64,000 nucleotides of DNA from assembly GCA_047495785.1 (NCBI GenBank), contig JBLDXI010000033.1:682001-746000 (forward strand). The letters run 5' to 3'. Below, in pieces: positions 6,639-57,119 of the stretch. Source of the DNA: Lepidodermella squamata (Eukaryota > Animalia > Gastrotricha). The position numbers and the translations under genes are program-made. How positions within the stretch are numbered: the stretch's first letter is position 1; every line of letters starts with the position of its first letter. The notes beneath the pieces were generated by a model that saw only the letters and a program-made list of their open reading frames with translations, did not search any database and was not told where the DNA came from.

Positions 6639-6950
6639 AACGCGTAGTCATTGTTCATTTTTTAGTAAAAAAACAACAAAAAACAGGCTTGCTTGCTTTT
6701 CTCTGATTGTTAGCCGATTTTTTGTATGCTAGACTGCCTTAGCCACCTTTACTTATATTATACCGCTTTTTTGTTTTTATTTATGACATATACTTATACC
6801 CGATACTAATTGCTTTGAAGCGCCAAATAAAGTGAAGCCTGCTTGTAATCTAAAAAATTTTTTATTATAAAATTCGTTTAAAAAAAATGGGTGATACGAG
6901 ATTATAAAATTCACCGGAGACAAATAATGATTCATCATTAATTTTGATGT

Positions 6951-8342
6951 TTAAATGTGCCCACTCGCACATGTTGTTGGGCAACTGTCGTCTTTTGTCG
7001 AGTCACTTTCGCATCGGCATGAATTTCGTTTTGCGGAGAACGTGCTGAGTCTAGCGACGGTTAATTCGAGTTCCGGGTAGGCCGGTTCATGGCCGTGAGC
7101 TTCGTCCATTCCGATTTCTTCGGCGTCGTTATTCGCTCCGTCGAATGATGGAAGAGTTTTTGGAATGGGCGACGTCATTCGGAGTAGCTTGAAGTACCGC
7201 AGAATGGCGCATATGACCAGGGTGTGTACAAATGACCAGGCGAAAATGACCACAGCTCCGACTATTTGCCAGCCCAAGAACTGAAAAAACACGAAACAAT
7301 AAAATCCTCGGAAAATGTGTTTCCACAAATTGTCAGAAAAATTCGCATTTTCAGGAGAATTAATTTGATTTTGATAGATAAGAGTCAAAATGCTAAAATG
7401 GTGGATTGAGTTGGGTGCCGTTGGATAGCCTGTGCGAAAAGCGGATAGCCCGAGCTTTTTGAAAATATTTTATTTCCTCATGATTCTTGCTTCAATTTAG
7501 GCCCAGATGCATCGTTTTAGCAGCAGATCGATGTCTATTATAGACAACCAGGTTTGCCTTTTCTTGGGCTTTCCAACAGTACCCCACTCAAAGGGTCTTT
7601 ACTGAGCCACCTTCGTGATTTGCCATGCCTGATTCGCCTCATTTTGACAGTTCAAAGTAATTAAACTTACGAGTGCAGATCGAATGTTCCAATGATAAAA
7701 TATTCCAATTCCAGGGTGCAGCAAAGCCGTAGCGATCAGACCGGTTAGTCCTCCACCGAGATGAACTATAGGGCATTTTTTAGATTTTTCCTTAAGATGT
7801 GATTTTCCTATCATACCTCCAACAGCATCAACAGGATCGTCCAGTTTCATCTTGGCAACGAGCCAAGACACGAAAATGTAGACTAGGCCAGCAACGCATC
7901 CGATGGCTACTGAGGCCCAAGTTGTCAAAACATCACACCCAGCACATATCGCCACCTAAATGTATTATTTCTTCAATTTTTAACCTCAAATAAAGTTGGG
8001 AAGAAAACCATACGTTTCCGGCTAAACTGCCGCACAGCGGCGGTAATAGTGGGAATTTCCGCGTTCGCCTTTCGTAAGATAAGTTTAATAACTCAATTTG
8101 CGTGGCGCGGTGAAAAAATTACCAGAATGCAAAAATGGCTACCGAGAGCATTCCACCAGCTCCAGCCAGCCTATTTTTGGAAAATATGAGACATATATCG
8201 AAAAATGGCAATGACAAACATGGTATTAGTCGCGGCGTAACCAATAGCATAAGAATCTCCCATCGCATCAACGTGAAGCTGCGAACCAGCGTTGAAGGCC
8301 ACAAAGCCTGTTGATAGGATTAAACACCCTAGCGCTGCTAGC
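6951..8342 (-). CDS. Ammonium transporter (Amt family), 3' half only; 5' half missing at the element junction
   Basis: GFVAFNAGSQL, AICAGCD, DDPVDAVGVHLGGG (spliced), EEIGMD..HGHEPAY; the upstream intron is cut at 8372. Confidence 0.85.
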
Positions 8343-8394
8343 TGAAAATGTATTAAAAATTCAGATTTGTTCAGTAGTAAGGATGGGAACTTTG

Positions 8395-8560
8395 GATCAG
8401 TAATAGCAGTACGGCGATTTTTACTATAGCCGTTTGGTATAAATATACGCAATTTGCGATCAGTAATGGCAGTACGGCGATTTTTACTATACCCGTTTGG
8501 TATAAATATACGCAATTTGGGGATGAGTAATAGCAGTACGGCGATTTGTACTATAGCCGC
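8395..8560. repeat. Subterminal tandem repeat, 63-64 bp unit x ~2.6 (left end)
   Basis: GAT(C/G)AGTAAT(A/G)GCAGTACGGCGATTT... starts at 8395, 8458 and 8522. Confidence 0.95.
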
Positions 8561-8825
8561 TTCTTGTCAATATACCTTCGTTTTAACCCACTGCTATGAT
8601 TTCACCTAACTAAAATAAACAAATCTTCGTTTTTTCACCTGTTATGAGCTAAACTAATCATTTTTACACTGCTTCTTTAGTGCAGCTGCAATAGAGCCCT
8701 TTTTCATTCACACAAACACTTTTTATTAGTCTTAACGTTTCAAGCAATGAATTTATAGCTGGGATAAGTCTTATCAGTTTTTCTATTCATTTGTTCAGAG
8801 ATTTGTAGCGGCTTGATTGGAGGGG

Positions 8826-9329
8826 TTAACGTCCAGATGAACCGAATCCGTTATCGCCACGGGTCGAATTTGCTGCTAGAGCGTTTTTCAATGGCCCCGT
8901 TACCGTTACTGCAGATTCTAAGCGACCATATTTTAAACACACCAACTGGGTAATACGGTCGCCTATTTTAATCTTGTAAGGTGTTTTGCTGTTGTTTGCA
9001 AGGCAGACTACGATTTTTCCGGTGTAGTCGGCGTCTTTAATTCATGAAAAATACAGATATTCATTAGTAATTTTCATTATTATTTGCTTCTTACCTATTA
9101 CTCCAGCGACCGTATCGATTCCATGGTTGATGCTCATTCCTGATCGACTGAATAGTTGTCCATAATATCCTCGTGGTAAACAGATTTTAATATCAGTTTG
9201 AATCAGTCCCCTGGTTCCAGGTTGCAGTGTCGTCTCTTCTGCTGAATAGATGTCCCAACCCACAGAGCCTTTAGTATGCTTTGTCGGTTCTTTAGCTTTG
9301 TTACTTGTTAGCTCTACCTTCAGCTTCAT
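8826..9329 (-). CDS. dut: dUTPase (trimeric type), 2 exons, intron 9035-9094
   Basis: GWDIYS, SRSG, spliced GVIDADYTG, GDRITQL, RGDNGFGSSG. Confidence 0.93.
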
Positions 9330-9763
9330 ATTTTATAATTTATATTGTTACTGAGGTTCGATTTTTATGTGAGCGGCTACCTCCTTTCAGGCATATTGTT
9401 TTTGTAATTCAATCTTCCTTAAAAATGCATTAGGGCCTTTAGCTCTGTTGACCCCTCAGTGCTGGCTTTAATGCTTTTCATCAAAGATTCTTGGTATTGT
9501 ATACATCCTCCTTAATTGCTGTCGGTAATTCAATAAGAAAACATCATGTCAATAAATCTTATACATCCTCCCTAATTAAACAATGCGATTTTTTACTTAT
9601 CAAAATAAAAAGCAATTAGGATTTTTTACCCTTTACGGTGTAATTACCTTAAACAATTCAAACAAAACATCTCCCTGTTTTTTCCTTTTATGGAAATATC
9701 ACTCAGACTATTTAAGAGAGATGCTTCAAGAATACACTTAGCATATTTCTTGAAGCAAGCTGG

Positions 9764-10528
9764 ATGCATCCTAAAGTCTACCATTTCGGCATAGTCGGCA
9801 ACATTGGGGCGTAAGTCTCATATACTCCACCGAATAGAATTCTATTTAAAGTCTCTTGTTTTAGCGGGAAATCAACCTTAATCGAGGGTCTCACTAATCT
9901 ACCTTCACTCAACCGTAAACTTCAGGGATATACCGCGTGGCCAATTTGCGAGCCTGTTCATCGTTGGGAGTCCTTTACTGATGACGATAAAACTAACATT
10001 TTGAAAGATTACTATCAGATGAAAAATGCGTTCAACTTTCAAATTGTAGCCACGAGTGATATGTGCGGCCTTTATTCAGCCCCTAACCACAAACCTGAAA
10101 TCTACGGGGCGCATACTATCGTTCTGCATGATCGAACGCCCTTCTGTTCTAAAAACGTCTTTATCCCATGTGCGTATGCATCCAAGCGCATAAATTCTAT
10201 CGAATATCACGCTCTCATGAATTTGTATGATAATTTCGAGCCGAATTTTGTAAAAACTGAAGCTATTATTTACTTGCGCTCCTCTCCCCAAATAGCTTGT
10301 CAAAGAGCCGTAGCTAGAGCTCGGGGTTCTGAAATGCTATTATCACTGGATTATTTACGCCTCGTACATGAGTTTCATGAAAAAATGTGTACTGTTGAGA
10401 CTACAAACAAATCCCTACCATGTCCCGTGCTTGTTATCGACACTGATAATTTGAATGCCTCTGAGGTTCTAAAGCAAGCTTCTCAGTATGTTGCCTCTCT
10501 TATCACGCCTGTAATCTCTCAGACTTGA
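9764..10528 (+). CDS. Deoxynucleoside kinase (dNK/TK2 family), 2 exons, intron 9811-9864
   Basis: Spliced P-loop GNIGAGKST, EPVHRW, FNFQ, DRTPF, IYLRSSP, R..AR.RGSE, YLRLVHEFHE. Confidence 0.9.
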
Positions 10529-10538
10529 ATCCTCATTG

Positions 10539-10901
10539 ATGGATCCAACAAGACTTGTGCTCTCGAACAGCCAGATTTTAGACGCTGAATCTTTGCAATG
10601 TCCAATTTGTTTATCTATCCTACTTAATCCTATTCAAACGCGCCCCTGTGGCCATTTATTTTGTACTAAATGTGTTCTCGCTATTTTTCAAAATTCAGCT
10701 CGAACAGTATGTTGCTGTCCACTTTGCCGCGAATCATTAACAGGGAAAGATTTCGTTAAACCCCCTGTAATTTTATCGAACATTATCTCGAATTTGATTT
10801 ACAAATGCCAATATTCTGATAAAGGCTGTCCCATTACTCTAACTTATGACCTCATTTTTGGGCATGAAAAGTTATGCCAATATAAAGAACCCATCCCTTA
10901 A
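10539..10901 (+). CDS. C3HC4 RING finger protein with TRAF/SIAH-like Zn finger (putative E3 ligase)
   Basis: CPIC...CGHLFCTKC...CPLC followed by C....KGC.........HE..C. Confidence 0.88.
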   Translation: MDPTRLVLSNSQILDAESLQCPICLSILLNPIQTRPCGHLFCTKCVLAIFQNSARTVCCCPLCRESLTGKDFVKPPVILSNIISNLIYKCQYSDKGCPITLTYDLIFGHEKLCQYKEPIP

Positions 10902-10943
10902 AGTTTTACATTCTTATTTCATTAGATTTAATTTTCAATAATC

Positions 10944-11465
10944 ATGGCTGAGGCGATAGTAGAATCTGCTAACCAGACAGTCAATCATCACATGTCTAGT
11001 AACTTGGTCATTCAACAGCATCCTCAGGATTCTAATCTCATCTACATAATGACTGATCGCAAAGATAAGAACGATAAGCCTAAAAAACTCGCCTTTAGAC
11101 AAGACGAATTTCTTAGCCAGTTCGTTCCTTATTTTCGACCGCCGAATGATGCTTGGGTTGCTCAGGCTCAACTTGCCCTGCTATCTCACAACACAGGCTT
11201 TAAATTTTCGATGCATGAATGCAAAATTGAAGTCTGTGTCTTTGTGCCATCATTTTCACCGATTCTTATAGATATACGCAGGTTTTATCTGGATGCTAAA
11301 GGTATTTACTTCAAATTTACAGTAATAGCAATCTTTTTATGATTTAACTTTTTAGGAAATAAACAACCCTCAAGACAAGGAGTCTCTCTTGATGCAGCTC
11401 AGTTTCAAGACCTTGCAACTGGGGTGTTAACTGTTGCAGCGATGATTGAAACAGCCAATGAATAA
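10944..11465 (+). CDS. PC4/Sub1-like ssDNA-binding protein, 2 exons, intron 11302-11355
   Basis: Spliced ILIDIRRFYLDAKGNKQPSRQGVSLDAAQFQDL resembles the PC4 core LIDIREY..D..G..KP.RKGISL...Q...L. Confidence 0.8.
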
Positions 11466-11582
11466 GCTAACACAAAACTTGACTAAAATGACTTACTGAA
11501 TATTTATTTCAATCTATCCTTGTAATAAAGTTTTACCTCTTCCCAAATTCGATCAATTTTAAATTTTTAATCTTAGATTGTT

Positions 11583-13747
11583 ATGGATAACTATAGTTTA
11601 CAATACTCATTTATTCGAAGTAATCGCCTGATTCATTCTACAAAATTCAAAATGTTTTCTGTGGAGTACTTCATTCAGCCCGTAACATCCGACTTTGCCT
11701 CAACCTACATCAACAGATATGGCCAATCTTCTAGTTCGCTTGGGCCGATGATTCAATTGTCTGGTGGCGCTGATGAACCTCGACTGGATAATATTCGATC
11801 ATTTGTGCAGAACGTACCAGCCGACCAGGTGGCTAATATTGATTTGGAGACCCGCTTCAATATTCTGGCCAACTTCCTGTTCGATATTGTTGTAAATATC
11901 CATCGTGATTTACCTGTGAATTCCTTCTGCCGGCTAACACTGTACCACCCCGACTTGAAGATGCCTCTTAGCCTACCCTTCATGAAACGCGATCGGTTGC
12001 TGGAAATTTCAATTTTTGATCAACTGAGAAAAATATTACAGAGTAATGAAGAACTCTCATTTGCTGGTCGGTGGACAATTCGTCTCTGTGTCATTGATAA
12101 CCCCAATGCAGATCTAGGTCAAATTGTTGGTGGTTCTCGGGCAGAGCGGGCTATAAACGAAACTTTGGACAAATTTTTTCTTCGCTCCAAATCGATCGTT
12201 AGAATCGGAGCGCGCAAGAATGAAACGAACAATCTTTGCATGGGCAGAGCTCTCATCACTGGAGTGGCTTTGGCTCACATGAAGGCGAATCCTACGGATC
12301 CATCTCTTCAAGCAACCTTCAAATCGATACGTAGTACGCGAACCAATCGTCAATTTCGCGAAGCCACGGCGCTATATCAGAAAGCGGGCTTACCTCTCAA
12401 CCTTCCAGCCTACAATCTAGATGATCATTACTCAGCCCTGTGTTCGGCTATCGATCCTGAACATAATACTTACAGATTCGTAGTATACTCGTACGAATCA
12501 CAGGATGTTATTAGGGAAATCCCAGAATTTGATCATCGCGTAAGCCTTGGGTTGCTTCCTGTTGTTCTACTGGTTTATCGCAACGACGTCTCTCAGCCCA
12601 ACAGTCATCATTTTCATGTCATTGCGAATCTCAACTTTATGAAGGCCACTCTTAGCAATGCACAACGAATATGCCCCACTTGCTTTCAGACGAAAACGAG
12701 TACGGCTGTGCACAGATGCAAGTTGGCATGCTCTTCCTGCCGTAATTTTTACATGAAAAACCTGAATTTCACTTCTTTTATCATTAATATTATTTTAGGT
12801 GTATCAGGGAGCATTTGCCGTGTGATTTCCAACACAGACCAACAAAACTACACGCGGTGTCCGCAATGTCGTGCAGGTCTGATGTTTTTAACCTTTTCAT
12901 TATTATTCAGCTCTTTTTATGTTTTTAGTTTTGTATAGCGAACGTTGTAAGCAAAACCACAAATGTGCTAAAAAGAATCCATGCTTTAAATGCGGGAGGA
13001 AATTTGTACATTTTCTCAAGCATGAGGCTATGTGTCCCGGGCGGCGCTGTCACATTTGTCAGGAGCCTTTGAAAGCCAGCGACGAAGAAAATGGCACACA
13101 CTTCTGCTTCATGACTCCCTTGGTATACTCATTTTTTTCAGTCCAGCTTTTTTCAAAATACTGTGGTTGGTGTATTTTTAGCCCTTGAAACCGGCGAATA
13201 AACTGGAACGTTATCGTAACCTAGTTTTTTGGGACACTGAGACATTTTCGCCATCACTTGCTGATAACAACAATGAGTTCCAAGTATGCCTTATCGTTGC
13301 AAAGGTCGTATGCATACCTCACTGCATCGAAGCGAGGATTCAGCGATGCCATTCTAGTTGTGGACTTCATATTTTTTATGGAAGTCGTCCTCTGGAGGAT
13401 TTCGTAAACTGGGTGCTTCTACCTATGAATTACCAGTCGATTTATTTGGCTCACAACTCAGCCAATTTCGATTCCTTATTATTACTGAAAGAAATTCAAA
13501 CACGATGTTCTAAAGTGAAGATTCTTCAAAGGCAGGGATCTCTACTATGCATTGATTTCAAACAACAAAAAATCAGATTTTTGGATTCATATCTCTTTTT
13601 TCAATGCAGATTAAGGTAGGTTACCTAAGAAACACTAAGAAACTACATTGCTTACAGGTATTTGTTCAACAACAGGGATTTACCAGCAACAATGGGAATC
13701 CCAGACAAGAAAACCTTCTTTCCTTACGTCTTATGCACTAAAGAAAA
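11583..13747 (+). CDS. Protein-primed family B DNA polymerase (Polinton type), N-terminal part through exonuclease; truncated by the fold-back; introns 12742-12798, 12877-12928, 13123-13181, 13616-13675 and a donor at 13748
   Basis: NNLCMGRAL, Cys/His-rich region ending HFCFM, ExoI FWDTET, ExoII AHNSANFDS, RFLDSYLFF..LRDLP.TMG...KTFFPY after splicing. Confidence 0.88.
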
Positions 13748-13781
13748 GTAAGTACATCATCAACTTCTTGAGCTATTGTGA

Positions 13782-15698
13782 TTGAATTTCTTTCAGTAAT
13801 AATAAGGAATCGAAATTGGCTGAGTTGTGAGCCAAATAAATCGACTGGTAATTCATAGGTAGAAGCACCCAGTTTACGAAATCCTCCAGAGGACGACTTC
13901 CATAAAAAATATGAAGTCCACAACTAGAATGGCATCGCTGAATCCTCGCTTCGATGCAGTGAGGTATGCATACGACCTTTGCAACGATAAGGCATACTTG
14001 GAACTCATTGTTGTTATCAGCAAGTGATGGCGAAAATGTCTCAGTGTCCCAAAAAACTAGGTTACGATAACGTTCCAGTTTATTCGCCGGTTTCAAGGGC
14101 TAAAAATACACCAACCACAGTATTTTGAAAAAAGCTGGACTGAAAAAAATGAGTATACCAAGGGAGTCATGAAGCAGAAGTGTGTGCCATTTTCTTCGTC
14201 GCTGGCTTTCAAAGGCTCCTGACAAATGTGACAGCGCCGCCCGGGACACATAGCCTCATGCTTGAGAAAATGTACAAATTTCCTCCCGCATTTAAAGCAT
14301 GGATTCTTTTTAGCACATTTGTGGTTTTGCTTACAACGTTCGCTATACAAAACTAAAAACATAAAAAGAGCTGAATAATAATGAAAAGGTTAAAAACATC
14401 AGACCTGCACGACATTGCGGACACCGCGTGTAGTTTTGTTGGTCTGTGTTGGAAATCACACGGCAAATGCTCCCTGATACACCTAAAATAATATTAATGA
14501 TAAAAGAAGTGAAATTCAGGTTTTTCATGTAAAAATTACGGCAGGAAGAGCATGCCAACTTGCATCTGTGCACAGCCGTACTCGTTTTCGTCTGAAAGCA
14601 AGTGGGGCATATTCGTTGTGCATTGCTAAGAGTGGCCTTCATAAAGTTGAGATTCGCAATGACATGAAAATGATGACTGTTGGGCTGAGAGACGTCGTTG
14701 CGATAAACCAGTAGAACAACAGGAAGCAACCCAAGGCTTACGCGATGATCAAATTCTGGGATTTCCCTAATAACATCCTGTGATTCGTACGAGTATACTA
14801 CGAATCTGTAAGTATTATGTTCAGGATCGATAGCCGAACACAGGGCTGAGTAATGATCATCTAGATTGTAGGCTGGAAGGTTGAGAGGTAAGCCCGCTTT
14901 CTGATATAGCGCCGTGGCTTCGCGAAATTGACGATTGGTTCGCGTACTACGTATCGATTTGAAGGTTGCTTGAAGAGATGGATCCGTAGGATTCGCCTTC
15001 ATGTGAGCCAAAGCCACTCCAGTGATGAGAGCTCTGCCCATGCAAAGATTGTTCGTTTCATTCTTGCGCGCTCCGATTCTAACGATCGATTTGGAGCGAA
15101 GAAAAAATTTGTCCAAAGTTTCGTTTATAGCCCGCTCTGCCCGAGAACCACCAACAATTTGACCTAGATCTGCATTGGGGTTATCAATGACACAGAGACG
15201 AATTGTCCACCGACCAGCAAATGAGAGTTCTTCATTACTCTGTAATATTTTTCTCAGTTGATCAAAAATTGAAATTTCCAGCAACCGATCGCGTTTCATG
15301 AAGGGTAGGCTAAGAGGCATCTTCAAGTCGGGGTGGTACAGTGTTAGCCGGCAGAAGGAATTCACAGGTAAATCACGATGGATATTTACAACAATATCGA
15401 ACAGGAAGTTGGCCAGAATATTGAAGCGGGTCTCCAAATCAATATTAGCCACCTGGTCGGCTGGTACGTTCTGCACAAATGATCGAATATTATCCAGTCG
15501 AGGTTCATCAGCGCCACCAGACAATTGAATCATCGGCCCAAGCGAACTAGAAGATTGGCCATATCTGTTGATGTAGGTTGAGGCAAAGTCGGATGTTACG
15601 GGCTGAATGAAGTACTCCACAGAAAACATTTTGAATTTTGTAGAATGAATCAGGCGATTACTTCGAATAAATGAGTATTGTAAACTATAGTTATCCAT
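13782..15698 (-). pseudogene. Mirror copy of the truncated protein-primed PolB (ends just after ExoII)
   Basis: ORF translations identical to 11583-13499. Confidence 0.88.
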
Positions 15699-15815
15699 AA
15701 CAATCTAAGATTAAAAATTTAAAATTGATCGAATTTGGGAAGAGGTAAAACTTTATTACAAGGATAGATTGAAATAAATATTCAGTAAGTCATTTTAGTC
15801 AAGTTTTGTGTTAGC

Positions 15816-16337
15816 TTATTCATTGGCTGTTTCAATCATCGCTGCAACAGTTAACACCCCAGTTGCAAGGTCTTGAAACTGAGCTGCATCAAGAGAGACT
15901 CCTTGTCTTGAGGGTTGTTTATTTCCTAAAAAGTTAAATCATAAAAAGATTGCTATTACTGTAAATTTGAAGTAAATACCTTTAGCATCCAGATAAAACC
16001 TGCGTATATCTATAAGAATCGGTGAAAATGATGGCACAAAGACACAGACTTCAATTTTGCATTCATGCATCGAAAATTTAAAGCCTGTGTTGTGAGATAG
16101 CAGGGCAAGTTGAGCCTGAGCAACCCAAGCATCATTCGGCGGTCGAAAATAAGGAACGAACTGGCTAAGAAATTCGTCTTGTCTAAAGGCGAGTTTTTTA
16201 GGCTTATCGTTCTTATCTTTGCGATCAGTCATTATGTAGATGAGATTAGAATCCTGAGGATGCTGTTGAATGACCAAGTTACTAGACATGTGATGATTGA
16301 CTGTCTGGTTAGCAGATTCTACTATCGCCTCAGCCAT
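15816..16337 (-). CDS. PC4-like ssDNA-binding protein (mirror copy)
   Basis: Reverse complement of 10944-11465. Confidence 0.8.
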
Positions 16338-16379
16338 GATTATTGAAAATTAAATCTAATGAAATAAGAATGTAAAACT

Positions 16380-16742
16380 TTAAGGGATGGGTTCTTTATA
16401 TTGGCATAACTTTTCATGCCCAAAAATGAGGTCATAAGTTAGAGTAATGGGACAGCCTTTATCAGAATATTGGCATTTGTAAATCAAATTCGAGATAATG
16501 TTCGATAAAATTACAGGGGGTTTAACGAAATCTTTCCCTGTTAATGATTCGCGGCAAAGTGGACAGCAACATACTGTTCGAGCTGAATTTTGAAAAATAG
16601 CGAGAACACATTTAGTACAAAATAAATGGCCACAGGGGCGCGTTTGAATAGGATTAAGTAGGATAGATAAACAAATTGGACATTGCAAAGATTCAGCGTC
16701 TAAAATCTGGCTGTTCGAGAGCACAAGTCTTGTTGGATCCAT
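16380..16742 (-). CDS. C3HC4 RING finger protein (mirror copy)
   Basis: Reverse complement of 10539-10901. Confidence 0.88.
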   Translation of the reverse strand: MDPTRLVLSNSQILDAESLQCPICLSILLNPIQTRPCGHLFCTKCVLAIFQNSARTVCCCPLCRESLTGKDFVKPPVILSNIISNLIYKCQYSDKGCPITLTYDLIFGHEKLCQYKEPIP

Positions 16743-16752
16743 CAATGAGGAT

Positions 16753-17517
16753 TCAAGTCTGAGAGATTACAGGCGTGATAAGAGAGGCAACATACTGAGA
16801 AGCTTGCTTTAGAACCTCAGAGGCATTCAAATTATCAGTGTCGATAACAAGCACGGGACATGGTAGGGATTTGTTTGTAGTCTCAACAGTACACATTTTT
16901 TCATGAAACTCATGTACGAGGCGTAAATAATCCAGTGATAATAGCATTTCAGAACCCCGAGCTCTAGCTACGGCTCTTTGACAAGCTATTTGGGGAGAGG
17001 AGCGCAAGTAAATAATAGCTTCAGTTTTTACAAAATTCGGCTCGAAATTATCATACAAATTCATGAGAGCGTGATATTCGATAGAATTTATGCGCTTGGA
17101 TGCATACGCACATGGGATAAAGACGTTTTTAGAACAGAAGGGCGTTCGATCATGCAGAACGATAGTATGCGCCCCGTAGATTTCAGGTTTGTGGTTAGGG
17201 GCTGAATAAAGGCCGCACATATCACTCGTGGCTACAATTTGAAAGTTGAACGCATTTTTCATCTGATAGTAATCTTTCAAAATGTTAGTTTTATCGTCAT
17301 CAGTAAAGGACTCCCAACGATGAACAGGCTCGCAAATTGGCCACGCGGTATATCCCTGAAGTTTACGGTTGAGTGAAGGTAGATTAGTGAGACCCTCGAT
17401 TAAGGTTGATTTCCCGCTAAAACAAGAGACTTTAAATAGAATTCTATTCGGTGGAGTATATGAGACTTACGCCCCAATGTTGCCGACTATGCCGAAATGG
17501 TAGACTTTAGGATGCAT
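16753..17517 (-). CDS. Deoxynucleoside kinase (mirror copy)
   Basis: Reverse complement of 9764-10528. Confidence 0.9.
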
Positions 17518-17951
17518 CCAGCTTGCTTCAAGAAATATGCTAAGTGTATTCTTGAAGCATCTCTCTTAAATAGTCTGAGTGATATTTCCATAAAAGGAAA
17601 AAACAGGGAGATGTTTTGTTTGAATTGTTTAAGGTAATTACACCGTAAAGGGTAAAAAATCCTAATTGCTTTTTATTTTGATAAGTAAAAAATCGCATTG
17701 TTTAATTAGGGAGGATGTATAAGATTTATTGACATGATGTTTTCTTATTGAATTACCGACAGCAATTAAGGAGGATGTATACAATACCAAGAATCTTTGA
17801 TGAAAAGCATTAAAGCCAGCACTGAGGGGTCAACAGAGCTAAAGGCCCTAATGCATTTTTAAGGAAGATTGAATTACAAAAACAATATGCCTGAAAGGAG
17901 GTAGCCGCTCACATAAAAATCGAACCTCAGTAACAATATAAATTATAAAAT

Positions 17952-18455
17952 ATGAAGCTGAAGGTAGAGCTAACAAGTAACAAAGCTAAAGAACCGACAA
18001 AGCATACTAAAGGCTCTGTGGGTTGGGACATCTATTCAGCAGAAGAGACGACACTGCAACCTGGAACCAGGGGACTGATTCAAACTGATATTAAAATCTG
18101 TTTACCACGAGGATATTATGGACAACTATTCAGTCGATCAGGAATGAGCATCAACCATGGAATCGATACGGTCGCTGGAGTAATAGGTAAGAAGCAAATA
18201 ATAATGAAAATTACTAATGAATATCTGTATTTTTCATGAATTAAAGACGCCGACTACACCGGAAAAATCGTAGTCTGCCTTGCAAACAACAGCAAAACAC
18301 CTTACAAGATTAAAATAGGCGACCGTATTACCCAGTTGGTGTGTTTAAAATATGGTCGCTTAGAATCTGCAGTAACGGTAACGGGGCCATTGAAAAACGC
18401 TCTAGCAGCAAATTCGACCCGTGGCGATAACGGATTCGGTTCATCTGGACGTTAA
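17952..18455 (+). CDS. dut: dUTPase (mirror copy), intron 18187-18246
   Basis: GGA GTA ATA G|gtaag...aag|AC GCC GAC TAC ACC GGA restores motif 3 GVIDADYTG. Confidence 0.93.
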
Positions 18456-18720
18456 CCCCTCCAATCAAGCCGCTACAAATCTCTGAACAAATGAATAGAA
18501 AAACTGATAAGACTTATCCCAGCTATAAATTCATTGCTTGAAACGTTAAGACTAATAAAAAGTGTTTGTGTGAATGAAAAAGGGCTCTATTGCAGCTGCA
18601 CTAAAGAAGCAGTGTAAAAATGATTAGTTTAGCTCATAACAGGTGAAAAAACGAAGATTTGTTTATTTTAGTTAGGTGAAATCATAGCAGTGGGTTAAAA
18701 CGAAGGTATATTGACAAGAA

Positions 18721-18886
18721 GCGGCTATAGTACAAATCGCCGTACTGCTATTACTCATCCCCAAATTGCGTATATTTATACCAAACGGGTATAGTAAAAA
18801 TCGCCGTACTGCCATTACTGATCGCAAATTGCGTATATTTATACCAAACGGCTATAGTAAAAATCGCCGTACTGCTATTACTGATC
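18721..18886. repeat. Subterminal 63-64 bp tandem repeat (right end, inverted copy)
   Basis: Mirror of 8395-8560. Confidence 0.95.
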
Positions 18887-18950
18887 CAAAGTTCCCATCC
18901 TTACTACTCTCATTGACCAAAATCGAAAAATTGACTCACAATTATGTTAG

Positions 18951-19955
18951 GGTTGTTTTGCCGGTCTGCGTTATAGCATTCATACCGAATCCTCAGTGGC
19001 ACTTTTTGGGATCGAGGTCTTTCGCAATCTCCACAGATTCACATACGTAAGCCATTATTACAAGCGACTCCACATTATGACGTCTTTTTCATATCAGGGT
19101 TCAATTCGTCTTATCGAGGAAGCCACTTTTCAACCTGTTAAGGTCAGTTATTCAAGTTAAATTTTGCGCGACAATCGCTAGGTGGTTGGTGCGCTCAAAA
19201 GGATCTTACCTTTAGCTGAAGCTAATTTCTAACTACTTCAATAATGAAATCACTGAAATTCACCAAGAAGCTTGAATCTTAATTACTATTTCAGTCTCAT
19301 TGTGCCATCTATACTTTTGGGCGTATCGGGAGCCGCCATGTTCATCATTCCGCGTAAGCTATGAGATGATTTTTAAAAAGTTTTTAACTCCGCTGTTTTC
19401 TCATGTCATTCTAGCTGATAGCGGCGAAAAGATGGGAGTGTGTTTTGTTGTCCTTCTCACCTTCTTCTTCATCTTCTCGACAGTCATCAGCTCGTTCCCG
19501 CCGAATTCAACAAATATCCCCTATTTGTACTACGTAATTTCCATTAAAATAGCATTTAAATTTATTTTATGATTTCCATTTTTCCTCAGTACTTGCTGTC
19601 GTTATTTGCTCTGACTATTCTCGGCACAGTTGTAGCAGCCTTAATTTTGAATTTCGCCGCCAAGGCCAAGTTAATCGAAGACAAGGAGAAGCGGCTGAAA
19701 GTATTTAAAGTCACAATTTGGGCCAATAACATTTCGCTTTTTATTTACTTATTGGGTGTCAGTATTGCTAACGTTCTCTTCATTCTTGCTATTTGCGAAG
19801 AACTTGTTTCTGAAACCGGAGGATGGGACGATGGGACGGAATTCATAACTGTTCGGAACGAGCAATATATCAGGCGGAAAATTGACGACAAATGTGACAG
19901 TTGCTACGCTTTTGATTCAGAAGGGAACTTGTACAACAATGGGCCATGCAACTAA
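18951..19955 (+). pseudogene. Cys-loop LGIC subunit type A, copy 1; 5' half missing at the element junction
   Basis: PNPQW, M2 SGEKMGVCFVVLLTFF, PPNSTNIP; paralogous to 24775-27239; begins mid-intron at 18909. Confidence 0.85.
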
Positions 19956-21844: not shown

Positions 21845-23275
21845 AGAAAAAAAAGTGCAGCCGCTAGTTTTCGTGCAGAGAGCCATAGTCATTCGGAGCC
21901 GTTTCAGAGGTCGTTAAACTTTGTTCGAAAAACACATAGGCGCATTAAGCAGTTCATTGTATGTTAGTTGTCGGCAGCTGTTGGCCGTTTTAGCGTTCTG
22001 TGTTTCCCACGACAGGTTGTTGAAGAGCACTGCGCCTCGGTATGCCAGTGTTTTCTGCCCATGCTTAGATCGTAGGCATGGAACGACGAGGGTGTTGTTG
22101 AACACGCTTCGCGTCATTGGTTGGTCTGGGTCAAATTCTTTCCGGACGAACATTTCGCACAGATATTCGGGAGCCTCACCGTTCACGCACCGCCAGACCA
22201 AAGTTGATAGGTGTACGTTGCGCTTTTGGTGCATCGGGAGCCATCGTAACTTCTTGCGCAGCGGTTCGACGTCTGCGTGTTTCGGAGCTTTCATGATAAT
22301 CCTGATTGATTGATCTTGTATCGTTTGCAGTGGTTTCAAGTTCGTGTCAGCTGATTGAGCCATGACATTGTCAGCGTATCCTAGGTAACTCAATACAATG
22401 CCGTTCGCCATCATTTTCAGAGTATTTCTATCCATGTATTTGGAGGCCAGTTTCAGTGCATACAAGCCGCGACGCGCTCGATTTCTAATCGCATTAATTT
22501 GCTCTTTGAAGAGAAGCTTTCGGTCAAGAACAAATCCGAGAATTTCCATTTTTTCAGCTGGTAATAGCACCGCTTCGTTGATGACTATCTTGAGACCTGT
22601 CACGACTTCTTCGCCGAGTATCATAAGCTGAGACTTCTTTGCATTAACCATCAGGCTGTTGTTGCCCAGCCATTTACTGACCTTATCGATATCAGCTTGT
22701 AACTTGTTTAGGGCGACTGATAGATCGCGGTCGGCACAGTAGATGGTCGTATCATCCGCGTATAGAATGATCGCTGAGTGCAGTGCAACCGCGGCGATGT
22801 CGTTCACGTAGATGGTAAACAAAAGCGGGCCAATGACGCTACCTTGTGGGACACCATACGCTATTCTGTTGCTGGACGAAATAGAGCCATTCAATTTTGT
22901 GATTTGATATCTTTCAGAAAGAAAACTTCCCATTAGCTTCACAGCGTGATCATCAAAACCAGCGTTTCTCAGTGTCGCATGAGTGATATCGCCTGAATCC
23001 AAACTGACTAGGCGAAAAGAAGCGTGTTATCTGTAGATGAGACTTGATCTGTTCGACAATGACCCTTTCAAAGATTCGAAGAATCGGTGAGAGGATCGAT
23101 ACAGGCCGGTAGTTGCTGACTTCGTTAAAAGGGCCGCTTTTGTGTAAAGGAGTAACAACCGCCGTTTTCCACACACGTGGAATATTTCCTTCGAATAAAA
23201 TCCTGTTAAATAATGACACGAGATGCCAAGAGATAGCTCGTTTCGATAATTTAAGCACACATTCCGGAATTTTCC
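21845..23275 (-). mobile_element. 5'-truncated, internally deleted non-LTR retrotransposon (CR1/L2/Jockey-group RT)
   Basis: WKTAVVTPLHK, NYRPVSIL, QFGFR, GVPQGSVIGPLLF, YADD; the D..KAFD motif segment is missing, with a frameshift near 22975. Confidence 0.88.
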
Positions 23276-23323
23276 ATACTGCACTCAGCAGAGAGCGAAG
23301 TACCGCTAGGGATATGGTAGGGA

Positions 23324-23732
23324 CATAGAGAAAAAAATGACCAGAGTAAGCACTCAAGCTAAAATATTGACCTCCATTATTATAGAAGTGCGTTCTCAAA
23401 ACGGATATCTCCGTTTTCTACCAAATTTTGCATGCCTATAGAACGCGAGCTGCTCTTTCACGTGGTATAAGATTTGAGGTGGGCAATTGCTGCTCAGTAT
23501 TGATATCATCAAAATAAGTAAAACCATAGTGAAAACGAGGTTTTTGTATCGTAACAACGGTTGGGTTGCCCATCTCAAATCTTATACCACGTGAAAGAGC
23601 GGCTCGCGTTCTATAGGCATGCAAAATTTGGTAGAAAACGGAGATATCCGTTTTGAGAAAGTCAACTTTGAATTAAAATGAGGATTTAGAAATTTTAGCT
23701 TGAGTGCTTTCTCTGGTCATTTTTTCTCTATG
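23324..23732. mobile_element. Fold-back MITE (hAT- or P-like), CATAGAG...CTCTATG termini, 8-bp TSD GGTAGGGA
   Basis: TSD at 23316-23323 and 23733-23740; ~42-bp outer and ~90-bp inner inverted repeats. Confidence 0.9.
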
Positions 23733-51096: not shown

Positions 51097-54000
51097 ATGA
51101 AACAAATAAAGTTTGCGATCCTACTAATTTGTTCCACGTTGCATTTTCCGTCCATCTTGAGTGGAACTTTCTTCTCTCGATTAACAGCGAAAAAAGTTCA
51201 GCCGATCTCAGGCAGCGGCCTATCTGATTTGTCATCTCTGACTTCTCGAACCATCAACTCAGTCAGCGAGCCGAATGTTTGCGCTGCCCATTGCTCAAAG
51301 GACCAGAGTTGCGAAACGGCAATGTTGCAAATTTCAACGAAAAAGTGTACCCTGTTAACGGCACCGGCTACAGGCTCGAGACAGGTCGAAACTGTCGATA
51401 ATGCTGATTTTATAACCTTCAGCGTTGCACCTGCAAGCACGGCCTCTCGAACAGCCCAATACACTAGCTTGCAAAATGTTACCTACTACTTTGGGGCGAT
51501 AAAAGAAGCATCCAGAAAACGTAAGAGCTATTAATGCAATGTTGGGGATTTTTTCAACATTTTCGTCGTAGCGAGTTGTTGGGACATGTACGATCCTAAT
51601 GCCCCCAACTTTTATGTGGAGGAACTTGGAGTAAGCAACAACAACCTTGGCGACCTTGCTTTTAGCTCGAGTTCGACCAAGGCGAGTACAATGGCCGCGT
51701 TCAGCAATCCAGCTCCGATGGCACGACTAGGCTCGGCCACGTTCTTCTGCTGGAAAGCAAATGTCACTAATTTGGCGAATGAATGGCTGAAGTTCGACAT
51801 GCAAAGCTTTGTCTGGGTCACTTCGATCAGCTACCGAAGCCGCGGTGCTAATGAATTTTGGCAGTCAATAAGACTTGAGTACAGCTACGACGATTACTAC
51901 TACAAACGCTTGTTCACAGGATCAGGCTTAGACAAAGTTTCTTTTAATAGCTGAAATTTGACTTATCTATTAACTCTGAAAATTCTGCAGATATTAGACA
52001 CGTCGACATCTGGAGCTTCAACTATACGAGTGGATTTGCATAGGCCTTTCCTGGCAAAGTTCATTCGAATCATTCCGAATGCAGATACTAACCCGGTTCA
52101 ACCTTATCGATGCATGCAGTTTTCGTTTTCTGGCTGCTCAGCCACTTGCACAGGTATGCTTTTCATCTAATCATAATGATTACTGAACATCCATATTTCA
52201 TGCAGAACTCTTGAGCGACGGTTCGGTGGAGCTGCAAAATGCGTTTTCGTGGGATACGTCTAAACAGATGACATCATTGGGGGAAACTTTGAGAATTGGA
52301 TTATTTGACCTTGGAAAACCAACTTTGGTTAACGGCATTCAGATCGAGGGCTGCACGCAAGGAAATCTTGTCAGTCAGTTCTCTGTGCAATACAAAATCT
52401 CAGCTACAGATCAATGGATCGATGCGGCAACCGACGCCGGTTCACAGGTTAGAAAAATATTTCTTCTTCATATATTATTCATTTCGAACCAATATACCTA
52501 AAAAAGACATTCCCCGGGAATCCTGACGCTATCAGTCCAGTGACTTCCTTTTTCCAAAACCGTCCATTAGCCGCGCAATATTTCAAAATAATTCCGGCGC
52601 TTTTTTCGGGCTTTGTCTGCTATGAAGTTCGACTGCTCGGTTGCAAGTCGAACCGGGTTGGCGGATTCATGAAAAATCTTGCTCGCGGGGCTCCGGTAAC
52701 GTTCTACCCTCAAGCGGAACCGGCCAACACTCCGATGACCCTCTCGCCGCCCTCGGCTATAACCACCCCTCGACGTGGACCTGCGATGAGCAATATCCAA
52801 AACTGTTCGAAATTGGCAATCAATGTCACTCAGCCAGTAACAGCTGATCAATTTATGGCAACAATCGATCTTGGCTCTAGTCGGACATTCAGTTCGGTGA
52901 CAATAACCACAGTCAACCAAGCTATCCCTGCGATACTATGTCCGGACAGTCTCTGGCTATTCTCAATACTAACTGGCGGGGATGACTTGTCGATGAACGG
53001 AAACCATGCGGTCATTGGCGCAGCTATTGGCTACGGAGACGGGCCTGATGGTAGGCCCTATGGATCGATATCATTTCCAGGCGGGTTAACTCGCAATGTT
53101 TTGCTACCCCTGCAGGGTTTGGAGATCGATTTGACAAATGGATGGTCCTGGTTTACTTGGGCTTACATACTGCCAGCGACTGCAGAGTCAGCGTTATTTC
53201 AAACCAACGTTGGACCGTGAGTTTCAATAACTATTTTAGATTAACGATAATTAGTTATCGAGTAATCTTAGTGGCCTCTATGGTTGGCGAGCAATTATCT
53301 ACTCCGGAGGGATCTTGTCAGTACAATACATAACAACACCTGATCTGCAGTGGACAACCAATGTGACAGTTCCACTCTCTCGTTGGTCTTTTATTGGCTT
53401 CACTTTAGATTGCCGCAGTGGCATAGCTCGAGTGTATGTTGATTCTTTGCCGAGCGATGTGCGATACGTTGGATGCGGAGCTAATACGGTGCCCACGGGA
53501 CCTTACGCTTTAATCGGGAGGCGAGGGCCATTAGCTGGGAGAATCGCTTGCTATCAAATTTATCGAAGACCGCTCGATCAGTCGGAGATCGTTGAGGCCT
53601 CTCTTTGCGCCTGGCAAGGTAAAAAATAATCTCTAGATAATCGACCCCATTTTTGACCAAGTTATCTTATTCAGCTCCACAGCCATTCGCCTTGTTCCCG
53701 CTTAACTGCGCTACCACTGAGCTTCTTCGAGGTACCTTAGTGATGACTGCAACTGGATCTCCTGCTTGCTCGTCAATGGATGTTTACCCATCTAGGTAAG
53801 TACATAGTGAAGTCATCAGTTTTACAATTAAAATGAACAATTCTCAAGCGCCTACACGCTAGCCCCTTCGGATACTCTTTCAATATCGAATTCTGGGTCT
53901 GAATTGGATCTTCAATACTCTTTCACAATATTGCTGCACGTGATGACCCCGGCCAATCAAACCGGCACTGTTTTTGGATGGTGGAACGGGGCGACTCCCG

Positions 54001-57000
54001 TAGCTTATTTCTCGTTGTGTCTACCGCCTTCCTGCTCTCCTGGATTTTACTTCAAATGCCGGTCGAATGCAACAGCCGTTACTGTTACTGGGCCAACTAT
54101 TCCATATAGATTCGGTCGGTGGTATCAAGTGGGCGTAATGCTGGATTACGGAACTAGGACTGGGGTGAACTTGATTTTTGAGGGTGAGATGCTAGCAAAA
54201 GCCGCTGCGGATTGCCCTCTGCAGCTGGACACATCTTCATTTCGAATTGGGAGCTCGACTTTTGGAGGTTCAGTTGCTTGCTTACTGATATTCAAACACG
54301 GGTTGACTGAACGGCAACTTCTGACTGCTCGGCGCTGCCCTATGACCAGCATCCCAGCCATGGAAGCTGGTCTGTATAACACTTATGATAACATGCTGAA
54401 TTTCGATCAGCTAAATGATAATGCTAATCTCTACACGGTAAATGGCGTGCCTATTACGAATTTATATGCCATGCCATTCTTGAAAAACCACTCAGTCGCA
54501 ACATTCAACTCCCAGCCCTCTACCCGCTTAGAGGGGCCTTTACCACTAGCCGGGACGTACCAAGCACTGTCCTACACTATGGCCGCCTTTTACTATCAAG
54601 TATTCACCGGGGACTGGCGACTGTTCCTGGTATCTCAGTCGGATGCTGGCGGGCTGAAGATGTATACTTTCGGCACTGATCGCGTCAATATGCGCTATTG
54701 GACCTCATGCGTTGGCGAGCAGAATTGGGATGTTGCTGGGTTGGTAGTCACTAATGAATGGAGACACTATGCACTAACCGTGGACCAAGTCGGCAATAGT
54801 CAAAGGCATAAGTTTTACGTGAATGGCGCCCTGCGATATTCGCAAAACATTACATCGCCCTATTGCCCAAACACGACTAACCCCGGGCGGATCTACGTTT
54901 CAGTAAGCTCATTTACTGTATAAAGCGATGTGATTGAAAAAGTCCGTATCCTTGAAAGGACACAACGTACGACTGGGCTGCGGTCTGCGGCGGTATGGCC
55001 TATGTCATTGCCTATCAGTCCACTTTGGAACAGATGCTTGTCAGCGAAATTTACTCTCAGAGTCCGCCCCCTTCGAGGCGTAATCAATCGTGCAATCTTT
55101 CTCTTAAATTATTCTTTGAATTCTGTTCATAGTTCAAGGACATGCCTGTTTCAATGATATAACATCAATAAGCGAGGGTACCTACACTTTTTCTTCGATA
55201 CAAAATATCGGGGGCTACAATCGGTCGAATTTCTGGTTGAATAGTGATGGCCCTGCTGCTAGTTGGATTCCTAACACCAATGACGATAGTGAATACTTCC
55301 GCGTTTACTTCTCCGAGGCAGTTGTGTTCACTGCGGTCGGAACCCAGGGAGATTCAAGCACTGGAAGATATGTGACAAAATTCAAAATTGCATACGCAAA
55401 TGATTACCGCACAGTTTGGAACTATCAAGGAGATCGATATACCGGGACCGCCCAGAAAACATTTACTGGTAACAATGATACTGACACAATTGTGTGGAAT
55501 CACTTCCGACCATACATCGTCGCCAGATATATCAAGTTGATTCCACTGGATTGGTCATCTGCAGGAATTGGCTTGAGGATTTCCATAAGGGGCTGTCACA
55601 GTAATTGTTTGCGGTAAAAAAATAATCCTACGCAATTCTTGTTTTTCACACAGACATGTTTTGCAACACTAATCTCATGGACGATACTGTGGTATTTTCC
55701 GCCTCATCAGCTGTAGATACATTAAACTTTATAAGGGGCTGCTATATCAACTCGCCATACCCGTGGACAGCAACCCCTGATGACCAATCACCTTTCATTC
55801 AATTCCAATTTCCAAACTTCAAGCTAATCACGGCTAGCGTCGTCCAGGGTGGAGTTTCTGGTTCTTGGATTCGTAAGTATCACTTGAGAACCACATCAGA
55901 CCGGATTTTCAACTGGAAAGGCTACACCTGGCAGAATGGTTCTTTGCGAATTTTCGATGGGCCTAATGTCACGAATGGCATTCAAACGAATTACATGAAG
56001 CCAGCAGTACCGACTAAAGGCATTCGGTTGGTCGTAGAAGATTACTTCACGTCCGTGTCTGGTCGCTTTTGGTTTCTCGGCTGCTGGCTGACAAATTTTG
56101 AACAGCCACGGCCATTCGTTGCGATTAGAAGCGGGGACACATTCCCAACTAACAACCAAGTGGTTGCTACTCATCCATTGCGAGGATCAGGCATGTCGAT
56201 GATGTTGGGTAGCGGTATTTTCAATCAACGGCTGGTTTTACTGCAATCGCCGGCCACCTCTAGATACATCACCATTCTGGCTGATCGGCCTTATACCGAA
56301 CTAACACTCTGCCAAGTCAGCGTAAATTATGACAACGGGACAAATTTGGCTTTGTATCAAAAGGTTACTGTTTCCCCTGATGTGACAACCTATAGCAATG
56401 CTTCTCTGACTGATGGACTCATCACGTCAGCTGCGGCTGTGCTCAGCGCGACGTCATCGTGGTTCTATGTCGATCTGGGCGCGCAAACGCCAGTGTCGAA
56501 AGTCGAGTTACTAGGCCAAGCGAGCGGGAATTGGATAGCCAGCTATGCCGTCAGCATTTTGGGAGCTTCGGGATGTTCACCGACGAGTCTGAATATAACC
56601 TGCTCTGGTACGAGAGTAATCTATCCCCAAATGGCTTATTGGGGTACATCGACTGACTGTGGGGGGCCAAATGGAGCCTGCCCACAAGTTAACAATCCAA
56701 CGCTTTTCGCAGGGATTATGGATGCCTGCTACAAGAAGCAGAGCTGCTCTGTTGCGAATAATGGCACTGTTTTCGGCAGCTACGCCGTTGATCCCTGCCC
56801 AGGATTAGCGAAATATAGCACCATCAGATATAGTTGCATGGAAGGTGAGTTTAAAGTTACCGTTCAGACAAAAATCGAAAAATTCCTCATTTATGCAGAT
56901 GAGGATGAAAACCCTGGCCTGGAAGTTAGGGTTGGAAATAACGTCAATGACTTCACCTCAAATGCGATATGCAGTTTCCATTCCTTGGCTGACAATTATG

Positions 57001-57119
57001 TTCTTTTTGCTTTCACAAATTTTGAATTGTACTGCACCCCGCCAATCACGGGGCGTTATGTTTTCGTTGCTAAAAAATGGAGCACCGCTCTCGCATTAAC
57101 CGAAATTCGAGTTTACTAG
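51097..57119 (+). CDS. Large secreted mosaic lectin-like protein: PAN/apple, several F5/8C (discoidin), LamG/pentraxin-like, F-type lectin-like and SUEL-like domains
   Basis: Signal peptide; CAAHC....SC (PAN); AVGTQG...YVTKFKIAY, ARYIKLIP..W...LR (F5/8C); WRHYALT...FYVNG (LamG); C..KQSCSV.....FG...DPCPG..KY....YSC (SUEL); EVRVGN...C, GRYV (F-lectin-like). Confidence 0.8.

Follow-up and report, generated by a model that had tools for sequence, protein, structure and literature searches.

A Polinton-type element with spliced, host-sized introns in its polymerase gene in the gastrotrich Lepidodermella squamata

Described relatives and the element studied here

In the available text of previous surveys, intact vertebrate Mavericks (Polintons) are described as having no introns (PMC8097293), and nematode Mavericks as having intronless core genes and intron-bearing cargo (bioRxiv 10.1101/2022.07.12.499685). 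Here, we analyzed a stretch of 64,000 nt from Lepidodermella squamata (contig JBLDXI010000033.1, positions 682,001–746,000, forward strand; this whole stretch is called the window), in which the region 8373–13788 carries just the left 5.4 kb of a Polinton-type element. Its protein-primed DNA polymerase B (pPolB) and three helper genes contain spliced introns of host size, and we consider it likely (probability about 0.75) that the element represents a young, multi-copy Polinton family that copies its own introns. What was observed directly is that the element is transcribed and spliced, that one or more of its transcripts are polyadenylated, that its motifs are intact, and that near-identical intron-bearing DNA is present at high depth. 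Intronless core open reading frames (ORFs), a trait of the described intact vertebrate and nematode Mavericks, are lacking here, and the spliced introns contradict the field's stated rule of intron-free Maverick core genes.

As far as animal Polintons/Mavericks of the adintovirus type are covered by the accessible parts of PMC8097293, PMC11161782, and bioRxiv 10.1101/2023.08.22.554363, the element shares with them the order of terminal protein (TP), vOTU, and exonuclease, the active-site residues, the terminal (AGT)2, and the likely occurrence in multiple near-identical copies, whereas the first half of its pPolB is split by at least five introns and its sequence is distant (best identity 37%, to a singleton). 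Adintoviruses in the Starrett/Buck definition likewise have a PolB whose N-terminal part holds a domain resembling OTU, and are further defined by a recognisable hexon and an rve integrase with chromodomain (excerpts of PMC11071296), while the Bidnaviridae, reported with an inactivated vOTU in the accessible part of PMC11161782, differ from the element, which keeps Cys219 and His343. In nematode Mavericks, intron-bearing accessory genes adjoin the left terminus as they do here, but the introns there are described as those of host cargo (accessible part of bioRxiv 10.1101/2022.07.12.499685), whereas here introns also divide the polymerase, a gene without host counterpart. Full-length polinton-like elements with spliceosomal introns are known from dinoflagellates, whose maverick-polinton-like elements bear introners (excerpts of PMC11957031); there, the hosts are protists, and the introns derive as copies from active introner families and are mostly secondary insertions; here, the host is an animal, and the introns are mutually unrelated, common to the copies, and spliced. 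Intron-rich mirusviruses also carry short GT-AG introns in active DNA virus-like genomes, a feature read as pointing to reproduction in the nucleus, but belong to the Duplodnaviria, have protist hosts, and are described as having introns enriched in morphogenesis genes (excerpts of PMC12768974). Where introns are mentioned elsewhere, in the portions at hand, group I/II introns or different topics are meant (bioRxiv 10.1101/2023.08.22.554363, PMC8502044, PMC12220804, PMC11071296, 10.64898/2026.10.13.758929, PMC6431247, 10.64898/2026.07.28.741278, PMC12721341). Searches of the literature outside subscription journals, Repbase, and supplements turned up no animal Polinton polymerase reported to have spliceosomal introns, and clustering with a described intron-containing family, which the first-pass annotation of this DNA had named as a counter-argument, was found neither among the relatives nor in that literature. 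The element is best read as a variant of Polintons rather than an undescribed 'system', with only the polymerase and the terminus as grounds for membership.

Introns, splicing, and copy number

The element contains seven complete GT-AG introns of 52–60 nt and 65–81% AT, located in the dUTPase, deoxynucleoside kinase (dNK), PC4-like, and pPolB (four introns) genes (Table 1); together with an eighth, the density is ~2 per kb (eight in ~3.9 kb of coding sequence). For host introns, lengths of 50, 50, 55, 55, and 92 nt were read by eye, while contigs gave 54 and 58 nt. Every exon is free of stops in the spliced frame, and intron retention leads to a stop or a frameshift for six of the seven complete introns (the exception, 12742–12798, is 3n and stop-free).

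Four public sequencing runs were compared with the window as contigs, namely X1 (DNA-like), X2 (RNA by an automated guess), X3 (from a different study), and X4 (nearly empty); the run records name no RNA source among the four. Contigs of X2 skip exactly the seven complete introns (7/7), and contigs of X3 skip two (2/7, in dNK and PC4). A loose scan of 8373–13790 returned 46 GT..AG candidates, among which X2 skips the seven predicted and no other inside the element, so the predicted introns are not due to chance. A 55-nt GT..AG candidate just 5' of the pPolB start (11522–11576) is skipped by no contig and contains the likely PC4 poly(A) signal. In pPolB, one X2 contig of 4731 nt is spliced across four introns and at the fifth donor; it leaves the window sequence at 13747 and continues for ~2.9 kb, which is room for the rest of the polymerase, with a palm domain expected beyond the breakpoint (full relatives have 1276–1433 aa). 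Its loose end at 13747 overlaps an X1 loose end at 13788, and from these two 30-letter ends the eighth intron would measure ~58 nt in other copies. The splicing, together with a non-templated poly(A) end at 8561 in the dUTPase transcript contig, supports the RNA nature of X2, as does one further X2 loose end that is presumably a cDNA adapter. These results agree with the first-pass annotation, which had claimed at least eight host-sized GT-AG introns whose removal restores the frame and had proposed looking for spliced sequences across the junctions: such sequences exist, the eighth donor is used, and the stop-free dUTPase exons tile Pfam PF00692 (positions 2–70 and 69–129).

X1 contigs run through the introns, and none of the seven is skipped at a joint; intron-less DNA copies were thus not seen among the X1 joints, which is insufficient to show their absence. 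The X1 depth on the element is 1835–2186, compared with ~100–145 on the host flanks (outside one small repeat), i.e., roughly 15-fold host depth, whether the copies are integrated or free. Among the pieces listed, six long element pieces show no differing letters and carry all introns, and no listed piece spans the junction at 13788 or either junction with the host. The element is thus likely a young multi-copy family of near-identical members, and we propose that the introns predate its recent expansion. From the terminus inward (8493–13576), the X1 depth drops steadily (2186, 2104, 2050, 1939, 1961, 1835, ~1790), a gradient that could come from end-retaining deleted copies or from replication starting at the ends.

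Table 1. Coordinates of the element, its introns, and adjoining host genes in the window
Feature	Position	Strand	Details
Element terminus	8373–8559	+	AGTAGT start, then 63-bp tandem repeat, 2.6 copies (8394–8559)
dUTPase	8826–9329	-	Exons 9329–9095 and 9034–8826; Pfam, transcript contigs, frame
dUTPase intron	9035–9094	-	60 nt, phase 1
dNK	9764–10528	+	Exons 9764–9810 and 9865–10528; Pfam, X2 and X3
dNK P-loop intron	9811–9864	+	54 nt, phase 2
RING-finger protein	10539–10901	+	RING and weak Sina-type zinc finger, one exon; ORF, Pfam
PC4-like protein (likely single-stranded DNA-binding)	10944–11465	+	Exons 10944–11301 and 11356–11465; X2 and X3; weak Pfam
PC4 intron	11302–11355	+	54 nt, phase 1
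pPolB, N-terminal half	11583–13747	+	TP, vOTU, Cys-rich zinc region, exonuclease; exons 11583–12741, 12799–12876, 12929–13122, 13182–13615, 13676–13747
pPolB intron	12742–12798	+	57 nt
pPolB intron	12877–12928	+	52 nt
pPolB intron	13123–13181	+	59 nt; exact 6-nt direct repeat in flanking exons
pPolB intron	13616–13675	+	60 nt
Eighth intron (fifth in pPolB), 5' part	13748–13788	+	Donor 13748, acceptor beyond breakpoint; loose ends 13747 (X2), 13788 (X1)
Strand-switch breakpoint	13778–13788	.	10/11 nt microhomology to reverse complement of 13493–13503
Mirror arm	13778–18908	-	5131 bp, ends ACTACT; one mismatch to 8373–13503
Left flank: host ammonium transporter (Amt), 3' half	6951–8372	-	Pfam ~193–381
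Right flank: host Cys-loop ion-channel paralog, 3' part	18909–19955	+	Cut inside sequence aligning to exon of the paralog located at 25.5 kb

Reading inward from the terminus, the dUTPase gene (minus strand) is followed by those of dNK, the RING protein, and the PC4-like protein, and then by the N-terminal half of pPolB, which breaks off at 13788. The terminal (AGT)2 at 8373 is mirrored at 18908; (AGT)2 or (AG)3 is the terminal motif given for Mavericks in the accessible text of PMC8097293. Of the AG...CT termini claimed earlier, AGTAGT stands as the left end, and the CT at 18908 is the mirror of that end and not a true right end. After 8449/8512, the 63-bp terminal repeat has a divergent continuation, the same in X1, X2, and X3, which hints at a true second terminal repeat or a subfamily; in X2, two contigs have different sequence before 8372. 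A protein search with dNK exon 2 gave one match among 251 candidates (29%, a cockroach hypothetical protein).

The polymerase and the origin of its introns

A search with pPolB exon 1 against 1.84 billion proteins returned 76 at E ≤ 0.001, with only one at E ≤ 1e-10; this closest relative (P0001) has 37% identity, and the other 75 matches have E-values of 1e-9 or weaker. PF03175 was detected in 20 of the 23 long relatives scanned, and sea urchin is one cluster among the 20 relatives looked up. The joined exons (with X at the junctions) align to the relatives as a single domain, reaching E 4e-75 for P0001 (residues 150–640), a value not directly comparable with the 6e-29 of exon 1 alone, which was obtained against a far larger library. 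When Pfam was run on plain ORFs, pPolB exon 1 gave no match and exon 4 a borderline one, and a word-index protein search with exon 4 gave no match. The first-pass claim that ORF screens miss the element is thus only partly borne out, by the polymerase, while the dUTPase, dNK, and RING genes were found from plain ORFs; ORF-based gene finding likely under-calls the element.

A structure model built from a 77-sequence alignment had a pLDDT of 77.7 (the single-sequence fold, with 42.5, was unusable). Its residues 193–352 match OTU folds (best Z 8.7, root mean square deviation 3.3, 124 aligned), residues 23–175 match Y-family little-finger folds at a modest Z of 5.0–5.4, and a viral fold library gave six matches at E ≤ 0.001, topped by adintovirus/MELD and bidna-like PolBs; Foldseek against the PDB gave no match at that threshold. 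The vOTU Cys219 is conserved in 75/76 relatives and His343 in 44/76 (30 have gaps), and the exonuclease motifs D-x-E, H-N-x-x-x-x-D, and D-S are all kept. As modeled, the N-terminal half of pPolB has the TP-vOTU-exonuclease layout of Polintons with catalytic residues intact, in line with the protein-primed, Polinton-type PolB of the first-pass annotation and with the order described for Polintons in the part of PMC11161782 at hand. In a tree made by a quick method (26 rows, relatives ≥ 480 aa, cut at 900 aa, midpoint root, without named references), the window sequence and P0001 are joined at 99%, both on long branches, and the tree assigns this lineage to no described group. The ORF of P0001 (Logan, 7213-bp contig) stops within a few residues of the eighth intron position, and P0001 may itself be intron-bounded. 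No related loci were found for P0001 in viral contigs, and metagenome contigs yielded none for exon 1 or the 23-mer of the terminus.

Hosts have no counterpart of pPolB, and the introns of this gene were therefore probably gained in the element's own lineage, while those of the dUTPase, dNK, and PC4 genes could have come with host cargo. The introns are mutually unlike (among 21 pairs, one reached p < 0.05). At 13123–13181, the exact 6-nt exon repeat contrasts with 0–1 nt at the other six introns and with tandem 6-mers at 0/2221 exon positions, and is a possible insertion scar; the Cys-to-Asp linker of 23 residues, against a mode of 21 (6/16 relatives; range 20–47), may add weak support. This repeat, with the weaker linker signal, is also what could be expected if host introners had inserted into the element and become its introns, a process known for the polinton-like viruses of dinoflagellates (precedent in excerpts of PMC11957031). 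We regard such an origin as quite improbable, as the seven introns show no family likeness, six of the seven lack such an exon repeat, and, apart from the mirror arm and an AT-rich 14-mer, the window holds no second intron copy; moreover, new introns of Daphnia come with direct repeats, which mark break-repair gains (accessible text of PMC4202315).

Alternative readings, the palindrome, and implications

In the nucleus, the host's RNA polymerase II and its spliceosome would make the mRNAs of the element. The vOTU may release the terminal protein, which would then prime strand-displacement synthesis from the AGTAGT ends (modeled on the available part of PMC11161782). The dUTPase and dNK would provide nucleotides, PC4 would bind displaced strands, RING might adjust host ubiquitination, and integration would be carried out, judging from Polinton biology, by an integrase encoded outside the visible part. 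Introns would be gained singly, probably by break repair or small insertions, with the host spliceosome defining them by their ~55-nt length; as replication would proceed from DNA to DNA without reverse transcription, gained introns would be kept and copied.

Several observations weigh against a young family that copies its own introns. Five of the seven junctions depend on X2, whose RNA status is guessed; the depth of contigs is an unreliable measure of copy number that cannot tell integrated from free copies, and X1 is possibly the window's own source. The P0001 protein is continuous across four of the intron positions. No integrase, ATPase, protease, or capsid gene lies within the visible left 5.4 kb, which makes the virus of the first-pass annotation a putative one, and no target-site duplication, 5–8 bp long in Polintons, surrounds the palindrome described below (the left flank ends in TTGTTC and the right begins with CTCATT). 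PC4 is the weakest gene call: the intron said earlier to split its core is skipped by both X2 and X3, but the Pfam match is weak, with exon 2 alone matching PF02229 (33–49 of 52, E 0.33, below the cut-off). The motif in exon 1, read by eye, is presumably that of PC4.

Introns in endogenous giant viruses have been read as a sign of decay (excerpts of PMC12768974), and the truncated copy in the window and the host-like intron sizes would also fit a decaying or domesticated, immobile endogenous viral element that acquired its introns after integration as part of host assimilation. Stop-free exons, intact catalytic residues and terminus, the identity of the arms along 5.1 kb, a depth of ~15-fold with every intron present, and insertions in host genes that are intact enough for transcription from another haplotype (Amt junctions, X2) make this reading very unlikely. 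Less improbable, but still unlikely, is a capsid-less relative that forms no virus (a transposon-only Polinton, or a linear-plasmid-like or bidnavirus-like segment): the visible part has no morphogenesis gene, bidna-like PolBs are among the top fold matches, and genes for thymidine kinase and dUTPase can occur on bidnavirus segments (accessible part of PMC11071296), whereas the vOTU Cys and His are intact, at least one of which is replaced in bidnavirids according to the text at hand of PMC11161782, the (AGT)2 end is a Maverick motif, and the absence of morphogenesis genes is uninformative with the left 5.4 kb alone visible. That the element also makes particles is slightly favored. More tentative is an active polintovirus lineage with a full capsid module and core genes intronised at host density, still gaining introns, replicating, and representing a broad ORF-hidden branch, and equally tentative is the joint proposal that part of the 15-fold depth would then come from free linear genomes.

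The copy in the window forms a 10.5-kb palindrome (8373–18908), which the first-pass annotation had overlooked, with inverted arms of 5131 bp (8373–13503 and 13778–18908; one mismatch) and a 274-bp spacer. As it lies between halves of two unrelated genes, it points to two joined, oppositely oriented insertions, so that no target-site duplication of a single insertion is readable, the two ends coming from different insertion sites. One copy would have been inserted in an Amt intron and the other in an ion-channel gene, both becoming part of a defective copy through the 10/11-nt microhomology. The element end lies 31 nt upstream of the Amt acceptor, and the 5' half of Amt was not found in the window when its N-half motifs were looked for. 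Reading both flanks as one Amt intron, suggested by a GTGAGT in the right flank (minus strand), was rejected, as the right flank aligns to ion-channel paralogs. Whether a real deletion between two inverted copies or a mis-assembly produced the palindrome is evenly balanced, each standing just short of an even chance. Termini at both ends, identical arms, and the junction microhomology would also suit a single snap-back defective genome made by the element polymerase and integrated as a unit; this is improbable given the missing target-site duplication and flanks that are halves of two unrelated genes, which one insertion would not be expected to leave.

The animal host has a compact genome, and a RecQ5 exon matches animals at 50–57%, with an annelid as the best match. 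In the host sequence, X1 shows two strongly different haplotypes of the Amt gene at 6900–8300 (27 differing letters plus 7 gaps over 343 nt), and X2 Amt transcripts match the haplotype unlike that of the window. Divergent Cys-loop ligand-gated ion-channel genes (paralogs 75–85% identical) form a large tandem cluster at 18909–62000; within it are reverse-transcriptase (RVT_1) ORFs (21914–23730, minus strand), adjoining a ~400-bp inverted repeat (23324–23732). At 51000–57100, a long gene of multiple exons was read by eye as extracellular, its stretches resembling PAN, LamG, and discoidin.

Polinton surveys filter on ORFs and assume intron-free core genes. A young family with a spliced polymerase mRNA would mean that introns need not signal decay in such elements and would imply that animal Polinton diversity is under-counted. 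With pPolB introns probably gained in the element lineage, one of them with a possible scar, the family would also offer a dated setting for how spliceosomal introns arise.

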